NCBI GenBank assembly: GCA_944363925.1
Contig: CALVVS010000001.1
Location: 450 to 64,449, forward strand
DNA from: an uncultured Bacilli bacterium
Lineage (GTDB): Bacteria > Bacillota_I > Bacilli_A > RF39 > UBA660
Length of the DNA: 64,000 nt
Direction of reading: 5' to 3'
The translations under genes and the position numbers were made by a program. The notes under the pieces were generated by a model. That model ran no database searches. It saw only the letters and a program-made list of their open reading frames with translations, and was not told the DNA's origin. This document shows positions 16,978-47,051 of this stretch, piece after piece (positions within the stretch are counted from its first letter, which is position 1; every line of letters begins with the position of its first letter).

Positions 16978-17010
16978 AACATGTGAAACAAAACACATGT
17001 TTTTAGTTAT
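16978..17010. terminator. Bidirectional rho-independent terminator between the convergent lexA and repeat-protein genes
   Basis: aacatgtgaaacaaaacacatgtt hairpin flanked by A- and T-runs. Confidence 0.6.
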
Positions 17011-17587
17011 TTTTCTTTAAAACTTTTGATTTTTGACGATTATCCCAAATAACAATATTACAAGATTTTGATAAAACCTTCGATGACATTATCTGTTCAA
17101 TTGGTAAATAAGCCGCCCTAACTTTACGTTCGCGCTTAATAATCTCTGCAATAGCATATTTTAAAGATAAAACATCAGCCTCTTTAACATGACATAAAAA
17201 ATAATACATATACTCGATATCTCCAGCTTTGATTACCTCATCTTCTAATCTAAGTACATCCGCCTCTTCAAAATTTCGGGCAAATAAATACATATAACAA
17301 GCATTTCCACTAGAAATTATTGCCTCTTCCATCTTTTTAATATTAACCCCTTTGACATCTTTAGCTAAATGATACATATAAAAAACATCGTCAGACGCAA
17401 TAATCGCATCCTCTATTTTAGAATAATCTTCAAGCTTAACATTACAGGCAAACTCATACATATATCTAGGCACACCACTGAGTATAATAATATTTTCATA
17501 CTTACTTATATCACCGCTCTTCAAAGCTCCATAAATAAGTAAAGCTCCATTTTTTGAAATATTTTTATCTATCTTAAAATTATCCAT
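17003..17587 (-). CDS. Hypothetical protein with four tandem roughly 33-aa repeats carrying a Y-M-Y-x-F/L motif
   Basis: RYMYEFACNVKLEDY.., VFYMYHLAKDVKGVN.., ACYMYLFARNFEEAD.., IEYMYYFLCHVKEAD.. No TM segment. Confidence 0.5.
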   Translation of the reverse strand: MDNFKIDKNISKNGALLIYGALKSGDISKYENIIILSGVPRYMYEFACNVKLEDYSKIEDAIIASDDVFYMYHLAKDVKGVNIKKMEEAIISSGNACYMYLFARNFEEADVLRLEDEVIKAGDIEYMYYFLCHVKEADVLSLKYAIAEIIKRERKVRAAYLPIEQIMSSKVLSKSCNIVIWDNRQKSKVLKKNN

Positions 17588-17668: not shown

Positions 17669-18484
17669 TTACTTCCTATAATAAGTACTAGACATCCTAT
17701 ACTCGCCATCTTCTAAAACTAAAGCTATCACATTACCAGATACATCCAAAACCTCTTTTTTAGAAGCATCAGTCCAATTAATACCATCAAAACTATATTT
17801 ATAGCTGTAATTATCACCATCTGGATACTCAATTATTAAACCATCCCCATCTTTAAATTGAATACCATCTATAACCTTAATAAGCCTTTTTTTAGTAACC
17901 TCATTTCCCCTTCCATCAGTTGCCTTACACTCTATAACGTAATTACCAACCTCTGCTTTCAAAGTATTCTCACATCTAAAACTAACCTCACCAGAATTAT
18001 CTGTCGCTATAACTCCATCAGATACATCATAACTAAAAACCTCATCAGTTGTAATTGTCACTGCCGAAGGAACCACCAAACGTGGTTTTTTATTATCCGT
18101 AACAATAACCACTCTTTTAAGCTCTTCTAACTCACCTCCATAAGAAGCTTCGTATTTGACCATATAATTTCCTACCTTCGTCGTATCAATCGAACTAACC
18201 TGCCTGTCATCTAAATAATAAGATATAGAAATCAAAGGTGAAACTTTTTTACCATCAAAATAAGCCACCGCCTTCATCTCTTCGTACTTATCATTTATTC
18301 CCACATAAGTAATAAAATTACCATTTAATACTAATCTAAGACCATCTTTTGAAACATTTTCATTTTGAACAATTTCCTTAGCCTCTGGCCTATTTAAATA
18401 ATCAATAATTCTATTTCCAATAAACAAAATAATCAAAAAAATAGTAATCAACGTAACTAGACCTACTAACCGTGCCTTTCTCAT
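17669..18484 (-). CDS. N-terminally membrane-anchored surface protein with bacterial Ig-like domain(s). It lies immediately downstream of two pilin genes and may be pilus-associated.
   Basis: MRKARLVGLVTLITIFLIILFIG anchor, then a beta-rich region with a DUF5011-like Ig segment (..VTITTDEVFSYDVSDGVIATDNSGEVSF..GNYVIECKATDGRGNEV). Confidence 0.55.
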   Translation of the reverse strand: MRKARLVGLVTLITIFLIILFIGNRIIDYLNRPEAKEIVQNENVSKDGLRLVLNGNFITYVGINDKYEEMKAVAYFDGKKVSPLISISYYLDDRQVSSIDTTKVGNYMVKYEASYGGELEELKRVVIVTDNKKPRLVVPSAVTITTDEVFSYDVSDGVIATDNSGEVSFRCENTLKAEVGNYVIECKATDGRGNEVTKKRLIKVIDGIQFKDGDGLIIEYPDGDNYSYKYSFDGINWTDASKKEVLDVSGNVIALVLEDGEYRMSSTYYRK

Positions 18485-18488
18485 AAAA

Positions 18489-18923
18489 TCAGTCCTTATT
18501 CATATTAGCAATCGTGCAGCTATCCGCATCGTTAATATTTTCATTAATCACAATCTCTTTAGATGAAGCTCCTTTTACCACGCAAATATGCGCACTATCA
18601 CTCCATAAAGCAAGCTTCACCTTACCATTTTCATCAATCTCAAACTCTCCCGCATCTGGAAGTTCACCATCCGTTTTAAGTAAATTCTTAACATCATCTG
18701 AACTAGTCTTATAATTAACTAATAAAGTAGGACTTTCATTTAAAGCTTGCTTCTCAGCTTGATAAGTACCAGCTGCCACAACAAGTCCATGCGCTGAATT
18801 AATAAAAGCCTTTTCCCTAGACGACTGAATAACATCTATCACAATTGGCGCTGTTACCACTGCCACAATCGCAATAATCGCAATAACTGCCAGTAACTCC
18901 GCTAAAGTAAAACCTTTTTTCAT
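18489..18923 (-). CDS. Type IV pilin / competence-type pseudopilin. Start at MKKGFTLAELL; the ORF track extends further upstream.
   Basis: MKKG-FTLAELLAVIAIIAIVAVVTAPIVI class III signal peptide. C-terminal Cys pair (HICVV...SCTIA). Confidence 0.8.
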   Translation of the reverse strand: MKKGFTLAELLAVIAIIAIVAVVTAPIVIDVIQSSREKAFINSAHGLVVAAGTYQAEKQALNESPTLLVNYKTSSDDVKNLLKTDGELPDAGEFEIDENGKVKLALWSDSAHICVVKGASSKEIVINENINDADSCTIANMNKD

Positions 18924-18924
18924 A

Positions 18925-19290
18925 TTACTGAGCCTCCTCAACACTATAAACAAACTCCGTCTCACCAACTTTTTCAACGCAAACCTGCGTTAACTGTGAA
19001 AAATCTTCATTTGTCTTTGGGTTTTTAATATCAACAGGTAAATAACCATTACTCTTTAAACTCTCAAGACTTTGGCATGCCCTATCCCCAACATTAGAAG
19101 GCATCTCCTCTAAGTGCTGCGTATAATAATCTTCTCCACCTTTTTTTATCTGTTCGATTTGCGTTTCATATAAATCTTCTCGGCCACTATCTAAAGAACG
19201 GTTAATCGCCGGCACAGTAATAAGTGCAATAACTCCAAGTATCGCAATAACTCCAAGTAATTCTGCTAAAGTAAAACCACCATTTCTCAT
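18925..19290 (-). CDS. Type IV pilin / pseudopilin. Start at MRNGGFTLAELL after RBS AGGTGA.
   Basis: MRNGG-FTLAELLGVIAILGVIALITVPAI prepilin signal. C-terminal Cys pair (RACQS ... QVCVE). Confidence 0.8.
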   Translation of the reverse strand: MRNGGFTLAELLGVIAILGVIALITVPAINRSLDSGREDLYETQIEQIKKGGEDYYTQHLEEMPSNVGDRACQSLESLKSNGYLPVDIKNPKTNEDFSQLTQVCVEKVGETEFVYSVEEAQ

Positions 19291-19364
19291 ATCATCACCT
19301 ATCATAATTATACAACATTTTTATTTCTAAACAAAATAAAAAGTAACTATTTTTCATAATTACT

Positions 19365-19586
19365 TTACTCATTAACTTCAAAATCTTCTAATTTTCCATT
19401 TTCTGAAACTATTTTATTAACCTTAGTTTCAATATTTTTAAGCTCCGCATCACACTCTTTAACAAGTTTCATAGCCTCCGTATATTTCTTAATTGACTCA
19501 TCTAAAGATACCTCGCCATTTTCTAAAACTTCAATAATGCTTTCTAATTCTGCAATCTTCTCTTCAAATTTTTTCTCTTTTGCCAT
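19365..19586 (-). CDS. xseB: Exodeoxyribonuclease VII small subunit
   Basis: 73-aa coiled-coil protein ..KKFEEKIAELESIIEVLENGEVSLDESIKKY.., immediately downstream of xseA. Confidence 0.85.
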   Translation of the reverse strand: MAKEKKFEEKIAELESIIEVLENGEVSLDESIKKYTEAMKLVKECDAELKNIETKVNKIVSENGKLEDFEVNE

Positions 19587-20857
19587 TATTTATCCTCCTT
19601 AACTTCCAATACTTTAGCGTTTAAATTTCCATCACTTAATCTAATACTAATCATGTCATCTTCTTTAACCTTCAAAACACTCTTTAATGCTTGATCGTTC
19701 AAATATGTAATACTATATCCTCTAGATAAAATATTTAAAGGATTCAAAAGATTAAGCTTATCAATAATATTCTTAACCATTAAAACCTCATCTTTATAAA
19801 GTAAATAAGGATTAGTAAGTACATAACTTTTCTTTATTTTATCAAGTTCATTTTTAAAACACTGAACCTTACTAATCATTAATTCATTTAACTTGTCATT
19901 TATCAAAGATAAACTCTGCTTTTTATTTTCAAACATAATCTGCGGATTTTTTAAAACAAATGAATTTTTAACCGACTCCAAATATAATTTCAAATAATTA
20001 ACTTTCTTATAAATAGCCTCATTAAGCCTAACTTTAAATTGGGCAATATGCTTTTGTAAATCAGCCATATTTGGAACTGCAAGTTCAGCCGCTGCTGTCG
20101 GCGTTGGCGCTCTTAAATCAGCCACAAAATCAGCAATCGTAAAATCAACCTCATGACCAACCGCACTTATAACCGGAACCTTTGAATTATATATAGCTCT
20201 AGCCACTACCTCTTCATTAAATGGCCATAAATCTTCGATAGAGCCACCGCCACGACCAACAATCAAAACATCTAAATCATAATCCTGCGCCCTTTCAATA
20301 TTGCGTACAATATCATCCTTCGCATTTTCTCCCTGCACTAAAGTCGGAAATAAAATCGTCTCACAAATTGGAAACCTTCTTTTAATCGTCGTCATAATAT
20401 CGCGAATAGCCGCTCCAGTACTAGCCGTCACAATTCCAACCCGTTTAGGAACACTAGGTATTTTTCGCTTATATGAAGCCTCAAATAAACCTTCTGCTTG
20501 CAATTTCTTCTTAAGCTGTTCAAAAGCAATATATAAATTACCAACACCATCTTCCAGCATTTCATCGACATATATCTGATAACTTCCCATTGCCTCATAA
20601 ATACTAATGCGTCCACTCACCAAAACCTTCATACCATCCAAAGGTTTAAAAAGCACCTTACTCGCATTACTCCTAAACATAATCGCATTAATCTTACTGC
20701 CTTCATCTTTCAAAGAAAAATAAAAATGCCCTGAAGTATGCGCCTTAAAATTAGAAATTTCCCCTTTTAAAAATACCGTTTGTAAATTTTCATCAACATC
20801 CAGTTTAGCTTTTAAATATCTTGTAATCGCACTAACTGTTAAATACTTCTCGTTCAA
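19586..20857 (-). CDS. xseA: Exodeoxyribonuclease VII large subunit
   Basis: N-terminal OB-fold (FLKGEISNFKAHTSGHFYFSLKD), catalytic core GRGGGSIEDLWPFNEE, and long coiled-coil C-terminus. Confidence 0.9.
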   Translation of the reverse strand: MNEKYLTVSAITRYLKAKLDVDENLQTVFLKGEISNFKAHTSGHFYFSLKDEGSKINAIMFRSNASKVLFKPLDGMKVLVSGRISIYEAMGSYQIYVDEMLEDGVGNLYIAFEQLKKKLQAEGLFEASYKRKIPSVPKRVGIVTASTGAAIRDIMTTIKRRFPICETILFPTLVQGENAKDDIVRNIERAQDYDLDVLIVGRGGGSIEDLWPFNEEVVARAIYNSKVPVISAVGHEVDFTIADFVADLRAPTPTAAAELAVPNMADLQKHIAQFKVRLNEAIYKKVNYLKLYLESVKNSFVLKNPQIMFENKKQSLSLINDKLNELMISKVQCFKNELDKIKKSYVLTNPYLLYKDEVLMVKNIIDKLNLLNPLNILSRGYSITYLNDQALKSVLKVKEDDMISIRLSDGNLNAKVLEVKEDK

Positions 20858-21262
20858 CTACTGCACCTTCTCATGATAAATCTTGTCCAAAACTCCATTT
20901 ATCATCTTTCTAACACTGTCATCACTATATTTTTTAGCAAGTTCGACCGCTTCATTAATAGCTACAACATCTGGTGTATCCGTATATAAAAGTTCAAAAA
21001 TTCCCATTCTAAGTATCGCCATATCAGTATTTCCAAGCCTATCAATTGTCCAGCCATCTAAATATTTATTTGCCAGTTTATCTAATTCATTTTTATAAGT
21101 CAAAACCCCATACACAATTTCTTTAATATATTCATTATCAACCTTTGATACACCCATAATAACATCATCAGGATCATAACTTATATGAGCCTTATCATAA
21201 ACTATCATTTGATATAAAATTGTCATACATTTTAATCTTAATTCACTTCTATTTTCTGCCAT
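20858..21262 (-). CDS. nusB: Transcription antitermination factor NusB
   Basis: 134 aa, all-helical. It sits at the head of nusB-xseA-xseB as in Bacillus, with a 1-nt junction to xseA. Confidence 0.85.
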
Positions 21263-21353
21263 ATCATAAGTAGCAGGCTAAAAACCTACTATCCTCCTCT
21301 CCAAAATCTATAACTAATTATATCATACGCCAAAGATAAAGAGCAATAATATT

Positions 21354-22433
21354 TTACTTTCTGTGCGCATACTCTTCTTTAACCTCATCATTACTAATTC
21401 CAAACCTTTTTAAAAAGTTATTACCAGATAAAATCAAATAATTAAACCCTTTATGGTCTAAAGTCACCTTATTAAAAATCAAATAATTCAAACGCGCATA
21501 ACTAAGTTCAGCTCCTTGAATTAAATAAGAAGGCCTTTTTAATATCTCTCTTTCTAAAGAAACATCCATCAAAATATCTATTTTTTTATTCAAAGTACTA
21601 ATCGAATAACTATATACATTTGGCAATTTTAAAGTAATAAAAATAGTCTCCTCAGCGGAATATCCCTTACTTAAAAAACAATTAAAAGTCTCTTTTATAT
21701 TCTCTAAACTTAACGTATAAATAGCTGGATTAACACCTGTAACTATATTAATCTCATCTTCACTATATCCAAACTCTTTTAAACACTGTCTTTTACTTTC
21801 CATCCTCGAAATATTCATCACAATAATATTTGAATTTCGGTAAATCATCTTAGCTAATCTATCAGTATCATAACCTTTTGAAAGTAAATAATCATAATTT
21901 TTCTTTAAAAGCTCCAAACTACAAGTATAAATCATCGGCGAATCTTTAATTATTTTATTAATTTCCTTATCATTAAACCCTAAATCCTTAAAGAAATTCC
22001 TTTTATCATTAATTGCATCTACAGATAAACTAAATAAACTAGGAAGCATCACCGTAAATTTATGAACCATACTATTAGAATAACCATAACCTTTTAAAAG
22101 CTCTAACTTACTTAAAATAAGACCCTCGCTAATAGTTAGTAAAGCAGGTAAAATAATAACCATATTTTTCACTTCAGCCTCGCGATATCCAAGTAACTTC
22201 AAAAAGCTAAAACGTTCATTTAACGTTTCAGCTGGATAATTAAACAAAGTTGGATTTAAAGTAGTCATTAAAATAATTTGTTTATTATCATATCCTCTAC
22301 CTTTTAAATAATTAAAAGTTTTAACAACTTTCTTCTCTAAAGTTTCTCTAGCAAGCCTTTTAACCGCATGACTATTAATAATTTTCTCTTGAGCACGCTT
22401 ATCATACCCTAAATTACTTAGTACATCTGACAT
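21354..22433 (-). CDS. mTERF-like helical repeat protein (putative nucleic-acid-binding)
   Basis: At least eight tandem roughly 35-aa repeats of the form L(K/L)xxG(Y/F)sxxxIxxIIxxxPxLLxxSxExLxxxxxFL, for example LKEFGYSEDEINIVTGVNPAIYTLSLENIKETFNCF. This matches the mTERF motif. Confidence 0.6.
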   Translation of the reverse strand: MSDVLSNLGYDKRAQEKIINSHAVKRLARETLEKKVVKTFNYLKGRGYDNKQIILMTTLNPTLFNYPAETLNERFSFLKLLGYREAEVKNMVIILPALLTISEGLILSKLELLKGYGYSNSMVHKFTVMLPSLFSLSVDAINDKRNFFKDLGFNDKEINKIIKDSPMIYTCSLELLKKNYDYLLSKGYDTDRLAKMIYRNSNIIVMNISRMESKRQCLKEFGYSEDEINIVTGVNPAIYTLSLENIKETFNCFLSKGYSAEETIFITLKLPNVYSYSISTLNKKIDILMDVSLEREILKRPSYLIQGAELSYARLNYLIFNKVTLDHKGFNYLILSGNNFLKRFGISNDEVKEEYAHRK

Positions 22434-22437
22434 AAAA

Positions 22438-22815
22438 TCAACTCCTTAAATAATCTTTAAGCGAAAAGAAATACCAAAAATGTACATAAAAATATAAAAT
22501 GATAAAAACCGTCCATCCCAAAATTGGGATAATTAAACTAACTATCCAAACATAAGGTGGCAAATATATCTCCTCACCCGGAACCTTAAGTCTCGCACTA
22601 ACTAAACAGCCCATTTTAACCGAAAAAACCAAAAACATAACAAATGCCGGAAAAATACCAAGTATAAAACCTAAAACCCAGTAATACCAACGATGATACC
22701 AAGCATCTTTGTCATACAAATCTAATTTATACGCAATATAAAATGTGAAAAGGCCTAAAGTTATAACATTTAAAATTAAATAAATCCAAAAATATCTCTT
22801 TTTAAGCTTTACCAT
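22438..22815 (-). CDS. Small aromatic-rich polytopic membrane protein (hypothetical)
   Basis: 125 aa with 3-4 TM helices and a W/Y-rich loop (AWYHRWYYW). Confidence 0.5.
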   Translation of the reverse strand: MVKLKKRYFWIYLILNVITLGLFTFYIAYKLDLYDKDAWYHRWYYWVLGFILGIFPAFVMFLVFSVKMGCLVSARLKVPGEEIYLPPYVWIVSLIIPILGWTVFIILYFYVHFWYFFSLKDYLRS

Positions 22816-22860
22816 AAAAATCTCCTTTGAGGGGTCAAAAAAAAGATAAAACGAATTATC

Positions 22861-23052
22861 TTATTGGCAAGTTCCCTCGCCTGGCTTAGACCCTTCGACA
22901 TATTCTTTATCGATAAGTTTGCAAGATGTTTTTGTCATAGAGTCTTGAAGATAGCCCCCCAATAGTTTGACTAAACTAACGACTACTACACTAATAACCG
23001 CTATGATTAGTAAATATTCTACTAGGGCTTGACCTTTATTATTTAATTTCAT
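22861..23052 (-). CDS. flp: Flp/Fap-family (Tad-type) pilin, 63 aa. Start at MKLNNKG with RBS GGAGGG; the ORF track starts further upstream.
   Basis: MKLNNKG-QALVEYLLIIAVISVVVVSLVKLL carries the Flp prepilin motif G-xxxxEY followed by a hydrophobic helix. Confidence 0.75.
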   Translation of the reverse strand: MKLNNKGQALVEYLLIIAVISVVVVSLVKLLGGYLQDSMTKTSCKLIDKEYVEGSKPGEGTCQ

Positions 23053-23188
23053 AACACCCTCCACAAAAATATCATAACTTACATCAATTATAATTTTTTT
23101 TGGAAGAAAAATCAACCCCATTAGCAAAAAACAAACAAATTTAAAGACAAAAAAATAAAAATGTGTTAAGATAAATTAGGTGAGAAAA

Positions 23189-25437: not shown

Positions 25438-25470
25438 ACTTTCTACCTCCTTTTTCCTAAGACTCGCCAT

Positions 25471-25543
25471 TAAGGTAAAGTAAAACTTTTTTTAACCTTT
25501 TTTGTGCGGTTGTAGATGGAGATCTACACATTTACAAATTTTA
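25471..25543 (-). ncRNA. Putative L21 operon leader (structured 5' UTR)
   Basis: gtagatggagatctac inverted repeat upstream of rplU. Firmicutes commonly carry an L21 leader here. Confidence 0.3.
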
Positions 25544-46977: not shown

Positions 46978-47051
46978 TGGTGCCGCAACGGAGAATCGAA
47001 CGCCGATTAAAGCCTTACCATGGCCTCGTAATACCTTTATACTATTGCGGC
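46978..47051 (-). tRNA. tRNA-Thr (anticodon GGU), CCA encoded
   Basis: Minus strand GCCGCAA..AGGCC-AUGGUAA-GGCUU..UUCGAUU..UUGCGGCACCA. 7-bp acceptor stem, T-loop TTCGATT, anticodon loop with GGT. Consensus promoter TTGCAA-17-TATAAT at 47054-47100. Confidence 0.7.

Follow-up and report, generated by a model that had tools for sequence, protein, structure and literature searches.

A vertically inherited mTERF-superfamily gene in uncultured small-genome Bacilli and the predicted solenoid it encodes

The window analysed here, a 64,000-nucleotide stretch of DNA from an uncultured Bacilli bacterium, carries on its minus strand a gene for an mTERF-like protein. The open reading frame (ORF) at 21354..22433 (minus strand) encodes 359 amino acids (aa) from an ATG start to a TAA stop, and an AAGGAG Shine–Dalgarno (SD) sequence is located 7 nt 5′ of the ATG. 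These coordinates and this length are exactly those of an earlier sequence-only reading, which had proposed a bacterial mTERF-like repeat protein. The neighbours are also as that reading described them: nusB-xseAB lies downstream and a small membrane protein gene lies upstream, all on the minus strand. The protein is composed of approximately 10 units, an N-terminal cap, seven canonical 35-residue units, and two or three degenerate C-terminal units, which are arranged in the gene as follows.

21354..22433, minus strand: mTERF-like gene, complete coding sequence (359 aa and TAA), as indicated by the ORF, Pfam, the structural model, Foldseek, and the ratio of nonsynonymous to synonymous substitution rates (dN/dS)
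22308..22433, minus strand: residues 1–42, N-terminal cap (LGYD...I.NS.AV.R...TLEKKV) with a long 17-residue third helix (helices H12–19, H22–25, and H29–45)
21573..22307, minus strand: residues 43–287, seven canonical 35-residue mTERF motifs alternating between types A and B, as indicated by the unit table, per-position entropy, motif matches, and motif alignment with MTERF1
21357..21572, minus strand: residues 288–359, two or three degenerate C-terminal units (RPSYLIQG..LSYARL..L....V.LDHKGFNYL.LS...F.K.FGISNDE.KE.Y), as indicated by conservation and helices H294–355

The G[YF] anchors of the units are found at residues 9 (a variant first unit), 47, 82, 117, 152, 187, 222, and 257, and their spacing is 35 residues from residue 47 on. 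A class-relaxed pattern detects 7 canonical units, starting at residues 43, 78, 113, 148, 183, 218, and 253. In the BLOSUM62 autocorrelation of the protein, lags 35, 70, and 105 gave z = 12.2, 19.4, and 14.0, respectively, against the maximum over all lags in 1000 shuffles. The repeat periodicity is far beyond chance, and the seven canonical and three degenerate units (z = 12–19) agree with the earlier count of at least eight repeats of about 35 residues. The similarity at lag 70 is higher than that at lag 35 (z = 19 versus 12), since the units alternate between an A-type and a B-type to give a 70-residue double unit. This observation suggests that the array grew by duplication of a two-motif block. 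The A flavour is ...P.LF..S...LN.KR.F and the B flavour is EINKI...P.IYT.SLE.L (repeats at 21573–22307, minus strand).

The consensus of the canonical unit is L-K-x-x-G-Y-x3-E-[IV]-x2-[MI]-T-x3-P-x-[LI]-[FY]-x2-S-x3-[LI]-x2-K-x3. The consensus in the sequence-only reading is essentially right, except that the spacer from [IVM] to the proline is 4 residues rather than 3. Because of this one spacer (x3 for x4 before Pro), the earlier regular expression as written gives 0 matches; with the spacer corrected, 1 unit matches it literally. G5, Y6, L29, and K32 are conserved within the units. P19, at the start of the short middle helix, is present in 6 of the 7 canonical units and is replaced by Ser in the seventh. 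The cap residues G9, Y10, I18, S21, R26, L32, and E33 are invariant across 13 orthologs. The degenerate C-terminal units are the best-conserved part of the protein across the wide bacterial family (R314, F340, and L304 are kept in at least 90% of 66 distant sequences), and this region aligns with the last motif of MTERF1, NPRVLDSSISTLKSRIKEL. The protein is basic, with an isoelectric point (pI) of 9.2 and a net charge of +10. Its first unit begins 4 residues after the start, and no organelle-targeting extension was found.

The sequence matches the Pfam family mTERF (PF02536), as the sequence-only reading had anticipated, with E = 1e-33 and 117.1 bits in 3 stretches, well above the cut-off of 23.1. 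Searched as a single sequence against the PDB, the protein matches human MTERF3 best (2.3e-8), followed by MTERF1 (1.7e-7), and it also matches mS93, a mitoribosomal protein of Tetrahymena. When 13 orthologs are combined into a profile, the matches are MTERF1 (7e-20), MTERF3 (1.5e-16), mS93 (1.4e-13), and MTERF4 (3e-8). NCBIfam has no model for the protein, and the annotation pipeline PGAP would label it hypothetical.

The structure was predicted by AlphaFold2 from a 66-sequence alignment of search hits, with a mean predicted local distance difference test score (pLDDT) of 96.3 and a predicted template-modelling score (pTM) of 0.89. The model is an all-alpha solenoid to which each 35-residue unit contributes three helices; these occupy unit positions 8–17, 19–23, and 26–3 in the canonical units. 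In a Foldseek search of the PDB with this model, ranks 1–17 are all mTERF structures (MTERF1, MTERF3, mS93, and MTERF4; probability 1.00). The MTERF1 entries have E = 1.9e-9 to 3.6e-8 and a template-modelling score relative to the query (TMq) of 0.51–0.59, with the DNA-bound form (3mva) at 0.59. MTERF3 gives the best structural superposition (score relative to the target, TMt, 0.77; root mean square deviation 3.6 Å over 262 columns). The first fold outside the mTERF group is that of a transcription activator-like effector (TALE), with E = 3.8e-3 and a TM-score of 0.37. The superhelical fold supposed earlier is thus what the prediction returns, with human MTERF1 among the closest structures. 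Since the Pfam match, the 35-residue motif, and the model with its Foldseek neighbours agree, the protein genuinely belongs to the mTERF superfamily in sequence, motif, and predicted fold.

Scanning genomes for the gene yielded 14 loci from 13 metagenome-assembled genomes (MAGs), all labelled "uncultured Bacilli bacterium". The scan succeeded only with close relatives as the query, and the named genomes therefore cover the immediate clade. Intact full-length orthologs are present in 13 of the 14 loci, with 47–72% identity to the protein of the window. Three loci are on assembled chromosomes of 1.34–1.54 Mb, at 386 of 1520 kb, 387 of 1539 kb, and 614 of 1337 kb. The accessions of the assembled chromosomes include OZ007022, OZ007025, and OZ007038. 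All loci of sufficient extent share one gene order: murF (minus), M23, M50, L21, Prp, L27, [DUF6273], DUF192 (minus), Flp-like, the 125-aa membrane protein, mTERF-like, nusB, xseA, xseB, two pseudopilins, and an Ig-like surface protein. The gene is single-copy within the window. It is chromosomal and is vertically inherited in this clade of small-genome (1.3–1.5 Mb) uncultured Bacilli.

The mTERF-like gene is the fastest-evolving gene of the block. Its 47–72% identity compares with 81–90% for nusB, 81–86% for xseA (full-length matches), and 90–99% for L27, and its dN/dS is 0.23–0.33 versus 0.05–0.15 for nusB and xseA. The synonymous divergence (dS) is 0.6–0.9 between the divergent pairs compared and 0.014 for the near-identical pair L002/L004 (locus handles of this study). 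The gene is under purifying selection, yet it evolves 3–4 times faster than its housekeeping neighbours.

Two loci should be described separately. The ortholog in L014 (5737–6427) is broken: its first three units share a frame, after which come a frameshift and the loss of approximately five units, and the last unit and the C-terminus are in another frame. The coverage of this contig is 3.5x, at which a repeat-mediated deletion and a misassembly are indistinguishable. L002 and L005 both come from MAG E16__bin2 and are two complete copies of the syntenic block, whose mTERF-like proteins are 65% and 60% identical to that of the window. E16__bin2 probably merges two related species, in which case the copies are not true paralogs.

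The genes and signals around the mTERF-like gene are as follows.

23087..23115, minus strand: promoter-like TTGATT-17-TATAAT, candidate promoter of the flp unit (consensus scan, 10 of 12 positions; a consensus match only)
22861..23052, minus strand: gene resembling Flp/Fap-type pilins (MKLNNKGQALVEY...), which heads the probable unit (Pfam Flp_Fap E = 1e-4, below the gathering cut-off)
22837..22862, minus strand: AT-rich hairpin and T-run (AAGATAA-loop-TTATCTT-TTTTTT) right after the flp stop, found by alignment in 14 of 14 sequences (the window and 13 loci)
22438..22815, minus strand: upstream gene for a 125-aa membrane protein with three transmembrane segments, whose stop is 4 nt before the mTERF ATG
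21317..21346, minus strand: nusB promoter (TTGCTC, 18 nt, extended −10 TGaTATAAT) in the 91-nt gap after the mTERF-like gene, from sequence and conservation
19365..21262, minus strand: nusB-xseA-xseB, neighbouring and separately promoted (Pfam NusB 1.5e-33 and Exonuc_VII_L 3e-94; synteny)
20858–21262, minus strand: nusB, downstream of the mTERF-like gene
19586–20857, minus strand: xseA, downstream of the mTERF-like gene
19365–19586, minus strand: xseB, downstream of the mTERF-like gene

The Flp-like gene is 74–97% identical in all loci. Its hairpin with T-run is followed by approximately 25 nt and an SD sequence before the membrane protein gene. The hairpin is probably a leaky terminator that lowers the expression of the two genes behind it. 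The most economical reading of the sequence is that flp, the membrane protein gene, and the mTERF-like gene probably constitute one unit, the last two genes being expressed by read-through. A scan for intrinsic terminators that requires GC returned nothing relevant at the locus, because the local hairpins are AT-rich and fall under this requirement; they were found by alignment instead. L006, L008, L010, and L011 have a second hairpin and T-run (e.g. CTTAGC-TAAA-GCTAAG-TTTTTT) approximately 40 nt upstream of the mTERF start. The junction between the membrane protein and mTERF-like genes is 4 nt in the subgroup of the window and contains a hairpin in these four loci, which suggests that the coupling varies within the clade. 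The 125-aa membrane protein belongs to no known family and always adjoins the mTERF-like gene within the clade. No homolog of it was found beside distant family members in ten contexts, and its role as a general mTERF partner was therefore rejected.

At the other end, the sequence TGTGnTATAAT ahead of nusB is kept in 15 of 15 loci. The conserved extended −10 in the 91-nt gap indicates that nusB-xseAB is separately promoted, and this predicted promoter delimits the mTERF transcription unit on its 3′ side. Membership of the mTERF-like gene in a nusB operon was rejected, since nusB has its own conserved promoter. The 5′ leader of nusB (window 21269–21302, minus strand) includes an insert of approximately 45 nt in the window, L001–L005, and L009, with a strong SD sequence (GGAGAGGAGG or GGAAAGGAG) approximately 30 nt before the ATG. 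A hairpin lies between this SD sequence and the ATG (AGTAGG..CCTGCTACT in the window; GGTGGGTT..AACCCAT in L002), and the changes in it appear to be compensatory. In seven of the other loci the SD sequence is a plain AGGTGA at a distance of 7 nt from the nusB ATG, and L013 has GGAAAGGAG near the ATG without the hairpin. The insert may act as a structured spacer, placing the SD sequence near the start, or be a tiny leader ORF, which is in frame with nusB in L002–L004.

Some other features of the window were observed. Pilin genes flank the block, with the Flp/Fap-like gene upstream and two pseudopilins with N-methylation motifs and the Ig-like surface protein after xseB (17669–19305, minus strand). 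The Ig-like surface protein has dN/dS of 0.17–0.29 and evolves as fast as the mTERF-like gene. The gene at 17003–17587 (minus strand) encodes a 194-aa protein with no Pfam match and approximately four repeats of about 30 residues around Y-M-Y (..YMYEFA.., ..YMYHLA.., ..YMYLFA.., ..YMYYFL..), and it has 58% identity in L001. The GC skew on the plus strand is very strong and uniformly negative (−0.22 to −0.49 per 2 kb), and the minus strand carries 55 of the 64 ORFs, which suggests that the window is a single replichore arm with a heavy leading-strand gene bias. The only Rfam matches in the window are an L21 leader (25450–25521, minus strand) and one tRNA (46981–47051, minus strand).

The distribution of the family in bacteria was investigated by running HMMER exhaustively against 1.84 billion cluster representatives (50% identity). 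This search found 1235 related clusters at E ≤ 1e-3, 375 of them at E ≤ 1e-10. Among the best 150 of the 1235 clusters, approximately 140 look bacterial, that is, they are 260–450 aa long, rich in K, N, and I, and start directly at an "LGY" unit, as in low-GC bacteria; approximately ten are eukaryotic (plants, a fern, and very long contigs). The motif had been called rare in bacteria in the sequence-only reading, which is correct for the literature and for named proteins but not for sequence space. A word-indexed search of 5.8 billion proteins gave 0 hits with the single sequence and 4 with the profile, and is unreliable for such repeats: the misses appear to reflect saturation of the word index by low-complexity repeats rich in K, N, and I rather than absence. 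The contigs of ten distant members have 20–37% GC and ordinary bacterial genes. Bacterial and eukaryotic members form separate groups, as judged from single high-scoring segment pair (HSP) scores and median identities.

The genomic contexts of the distant members vary. A 26%-identical relative in L017 lies directly after nusB-xseA-xseB and near RNase J, a 25%-identical relative in L018 lies directly after rpsF-ssb-rpsR and before rplI, and a member in L024 follows a gene for single-stranded DNA-binding protein (SSB). A mini-mTERF of approximately 132 aa is paired with a long member in L015, L016, L017, and L024. Such mini genes (125–134 aa) are located at L015:3140–3538, L016:538–936, L017:7119–7517, L024:2564–2968, and L022:3799–4176, upstream of the long gene in two loci and downstream in three. 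The pairing of long and mini genes suggests a two-component arrangement, which is not present in the clade of the window. Tandem arrays were also found. L020:1–8000 (GCA_964644815.1, CAZXXI010000022.1) contains at least 9 consecutive mTERF-like ORFs of 293–368 aa, followed by a 1054-aa SNF2/DEAD helicase. The eight full ORFs match the family hidden Markov model with E = 1e-48 to 1e-87, and most of them have no precomputed Pfam match; the ninth, which is cut (329 aa), has a precomputed Pfam mTERF match. L021 has 3 mTERF-like genes consecutively, L022 has 4 and the mini unit, and L023 also has a tandem array.

The solenoids of MTERF1, MTERF3, and MTERF4 bind a nucleic acid duplex on the inner face. 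The pI of 9.2 and the conserved Lys or Arg in each unit suggest, at the level of sequence, that the bacterial protein binds nucleic acid as well. Lys or Arg occupies unit position 32 in 5 of the 7 canonical units, with an ortholog entropy of 0.44. Across the orthologs, conservation is found at G5, Y6, P19, the hydrophobic core, and basic position 32, and one face of helices 1 and 3 is freely variable (unit positions 3, 8, 9, 13, 16, 26, 27, 31, and 34). Other residues (N65, Y66, H124, R145, N159, and K214/R215) are invariant in the orthologs and differ between units. These unit-specific polar residues resemble the expected specificity determinants, which suggests that they may read the target.

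A paper of 2024 in Nucleic Acids Res (PMC11417379) described two bacterial homologs, pTERF1 (MBQ3414883.1) and pTERF2, under the name "prokaryotic mTERF-like proteins". pTERF1 binds double-stranded DNA (dsDNA) containing ACTNNNAGTC with a Kd of 1.87 nM, and pTERF2 binds a different motif, also with a nanomolar Kd (PMC11417379). Because these are the only bacterial homologs tested, dsDNA is favoured as the ligand here. The role that appears most likely by this analogy, with our confidence at about the halfway mark, is sequence-specific dsDNA binding as a site-specific regulator or roadblock. In the model, the approximately ten three-helix units of 35 residues stack as a continuous alpha-solenoid with the MTERF1/MTERF3 fold, which would hold the duplex along its inner surface. 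The basic residue at unit position 32 (R74, K109, K144, K214, and K284) could contact the backbone, and unit-specific invariant polar residues (e.g. N65, Y66, H124, R145, and N159) could provide specificity for a dsDNA site of 10–20 bp. The bound protein might then regulate in a site-specific manner or, like MTERF1, form a polar roadblock in the path of RNA polymerase, though it would do so without the MTERF1 base-flipping triad. Its expression would probably be low, by read-through of the conserved hairpin behind the Flp-pilin gene, together with the clade-specific small membrane protein. The fast evolution of the gene (47–72% identity) fits a regulator co-evolving with its site and not a partner of conserved rRNA, and the up to 9 diverged tandem paralogs in other bacteria suggest diversification of specificity.

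Several observations weigh against this assignment. Among the eukaryotic mTERFs that have been characterised, half bind RNA, and a match to the fold does not discriminate between ligands. No target site for the protein was found in this analysis. The motif of pTERF1, ACTNNNAGTC, has 6 matches in the window versus 3.7 ± 2.0 expected and is not enriched; specificity differs between members. The assignment to the pTERF subfamily is limited to the 35-aa period, the unit number, and the taxon, and pTERF1 is without the canonical Pro/Leu pattern according to its paper, whereas the present protein has it. The triad of MTERF1 was located in the profile alignment by comparing the R162A, F243A, and Y288A mutant chains in the PDB with wild-type chains. 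R162 corresponds to I94 (I/K/F/R/G in the orthologs), F243 corresponds to M167 (M/F/S), and Y288 is in an insertion found only in MTERF1. As the alignment indicates, the base-flipping triad is not conserved, so the termination mechanism of MTERF1 is not simply transferable and any roadblock would not rely on MTERF1 base flipping. That the basic stripe faces the concave side of the predicted model is an assumption. Finally, the positions next to L21-Prp-L27 and nusB here, and next to rpsF-ssb-rpsR and nusB-xseAB in distant members, hint at roles in RNA or ribosome biology.

Such a role is the main rival: the protein may be an RNA-binding factor of ribosome biogenesis or RNA maturation that clamps an rRNA helix or another structured RNA, which we regard as a real though doubtful possibility. 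MTERF4 binds 16S rRNA at h68–71, MTERF3 and plant mTERF9 act in ribosome assembly, and mS93 is a ribosomal protein. The profile matches to mS93 (1.4e-13) and MTERF3 (1.5e-16) and the superposition on MTERF3 (TMt 0.77, 3.6 Å) are in line with this role, as are the position between the L21-Prp-L27 operon and nusB in 15 of 15 loci and the surroundings of the relatives in L018 (after rpsF-ssb-rpsR, before rplI) and L017 (after nusB-xseAB, near RNase J). Single-copy retention in reduced genomes of 1.3–1.5 Mb also suggests a housekeeping role. However, nusB has its own promoter, and adjacency is not co-transcription; most of the other sampled contexts are unrelated to translation; and the gene evolves fastest in the block, though the presumed rRNA target is nearly invariant. 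Moreover, the only bacterial homologs tested bind dsDNA. A function in replication or on single-stranded DNA (ssDNA), as a polar fork or helicase barrier ("contrahelicase") or as a partner of SSB or exonuclease VII, seems improbable. MTERF-family proteins pause replication forks, contrahelicase activity is reported for sea-urchin mtDBP, DmTTF, and MTERF1, genes for SSB or exonuclease VII recur nearby (xseAB in the window and L017, ssb in L018 and L024), and the nine-gene array of L020 is followed by the SNF2/DEAD helicase. But the neighbours are separately promoted here, and rpsF-ssb-rpsR and nusB-xseAB are very common housekeeping blocks, whose adjacency may be fortuitous in compact genomes. 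The chromosomal positions (386/1520, 387/1539, and 614/1337 kb) are not obviously at the terminus, the origins being unmapped. Alpha-solenoids often serve as scaffolds, and the conserved gene order (flp, then the membrane protein, then mTERF), the 4-nt junction in the subgroup of the window, and the pseudopilin genes just beyond xseB would fit an adaptor for the membrane protein and the Flp pilus machinery that binds no nucleic acid. This is quite improbable in our estimate, since all characterised mTERFs are nucleic-acid binders, the protein has a basic pI (9.2) and a conserved Lys or Arg in each unit, the membrane partner is not beside any distant family member, and four loci have a hairpin and T-run between the membrane protein and mTERF-like genes.

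The origin of the gene also has to be considered. The sequence-only reading had suggested that it could have been acquired horizontally. The mTERF family is otherwise known from eukaryotes, and the exhaustive search gives plant proteins E values down to 1e-48, from scores summed over several domains of very long proteins. Nevertheless, a recent transfer from a eukaryote (plant or host) is very improbable. The GC content (0.274), the GC content at third codon positions (0.214), and the codon-usage divergence (0.156) are all typical of the window, and the gene occupies the same position in the 14 loci from 13 related assemblies, with dS of 0.6–0.9 between divergent pairs. The best single HSPs score 135–158 bits to bacteria versus 68–85 to eukaryotes, so that bacterial relatives score approximately twice as high, and the median identity is 29.5% between bacterial members versus 24.2% between bacterial and eukaryotic ones. 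Mobile elements hold no relatives either: tblastn found no match among 50,697 phage and 72,556 plasmid records. Native composition, the absence of phage or plasmid relatives, synteny, and purifying selection together leave a recent horizontal acquisition unsupported. An origin in a defence system, a phage, or a plasmid was likewise rejected, since there was no match in PADLOC or in the phage and plasmid records, nothing better than E = 0.029 in PHROGs, and only a weak Megaviridae match in BFVD. An ancient transfer of mTERF genes between domains may have occurred in either direction. A broader idea, which we consider rather unlikely as a whole, is that bacterial mTERFs are a large, old, and actively diversifying family of low-GC Bacillota, with single-copy members at housekeeping loci, "long plus mini" pairs, and arrays of at least 9 paralogs; that they are a modular and evolvable recognition system; and that they are the source of the organellar mTERFs.

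Textbooks place the mTERF family only in animal and plant organelles. A plant-mTERF paper of 2026 describes the family as absent from prokaryotes (PMC12977773). The protein of the window belongs to a large bacterial branch, for which the pTERF paper of 2024 is the exception in the literature. The present analysis adds a vertically inherited ortholog group under selection, the extent of the family in bacteria, and the arrays of paralogs: in an entire clade of gut Bacilli with reduced genomes, the mTERF family is represented by a native, conserved gene that is under selection, and there are hundreds to more than 1000 bacterial mTERF-like clusters. The question of mTERF origin thereby becomes testable by phylogeny. 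Bacterial mTERFs also offer simple models of how solenoids read nucleic acid, and they enlarge the pool of compact 35-residue modular repeat binders, which may be engineerable.

Among known systems, TALE and TALE-like proteins resemble the mTERF-like protein in their tandem repeats of approximately 34–35 residues, in a superhelix that tracks nucleic acid, and in the idea of modular specificity. They differ in having two-helix units and match its structure weakly (E = 3.8e-3, TM 0.37), and the mTERF-like protein has neither a hypervariable dipeptide like the repeat-variable diresidue of TALEs nor sequence similarity to them. The closest eukaryotic sequences are plant organellar mTERFs (e.g. chloroplastic MTERF5, P0151; profile E = 6e-32 to Prunus MTERF5), which share the G-x(13)-P-x(12)-K motif and whose growth as a family through tandem duplication has its parallel in the bacterial arrays. 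They are, in contrast, nuclear-encoded with transit peptides, have 22–28% identity, and form a group separate from the bacterial proteins. Human MTERF3 (MTERFD1, PDB 3M66) and MTERF4 (PDB 4FP9, 7O9K) show the same regular motif stacking, but both are shorter (approximately 6 motifs) and have 17–21% identity. MTERF4 acts on rRNA as a heterodimer with the NSUN4 methyltransferase, and no such partner gene is present at the bacterial locus. Human MTERF1 (PDB 3MVA, 3N6S, 5CRK, and others) shares the fold, the size (approximately 340 aa mature), and the basic charge, and seven bacterial units align with it motif for motif. On the other hand, the identity is 17–19%, the base-flipping and stacking triad is not kept in the bacterial protein, the units of MTERF1 are irregular and interspersed whereas the bacterial ones are strictly tandem at 35 residues, and the bacterial protein has no organellar presequence.

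The pTERF proteins are the nearest described counterparts in habitat and architecture. Both groups are bacterial, mostly from Bacillota, and known only from MAGs of gut habitats; both have tandem 35-residue three-helix units (3–11 in pTERF, approximately 10 here) with mTERF motifs recognised by domain databases, and a predicted MTERF1-like solenoid. Binding to dsDNA was measured for pTERF1 and pTERF2, whereas the mTERF-like protein is known from sequence and model. pTERF1 is without the canonical Pro and Leu-heptad pattern and has 9–18% identity to eukaryotic mTERFs (PMC11417379). By this description it differs from the mTERF-like protein, which keeps the Pro, Gly, and Lys signature (Pfam mTERF, 1e-33) and thus fits the canonical mTERF model more strongly than the description suggests for pTERF1. 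Compared by description only, the two may belong to different subfamilies. The groups also differ in scale, as the pTERF paper lists approximately 46 MAG-derived homologs with 3–11 units (PMC11417379), compared with the 1235 related clusters found here.

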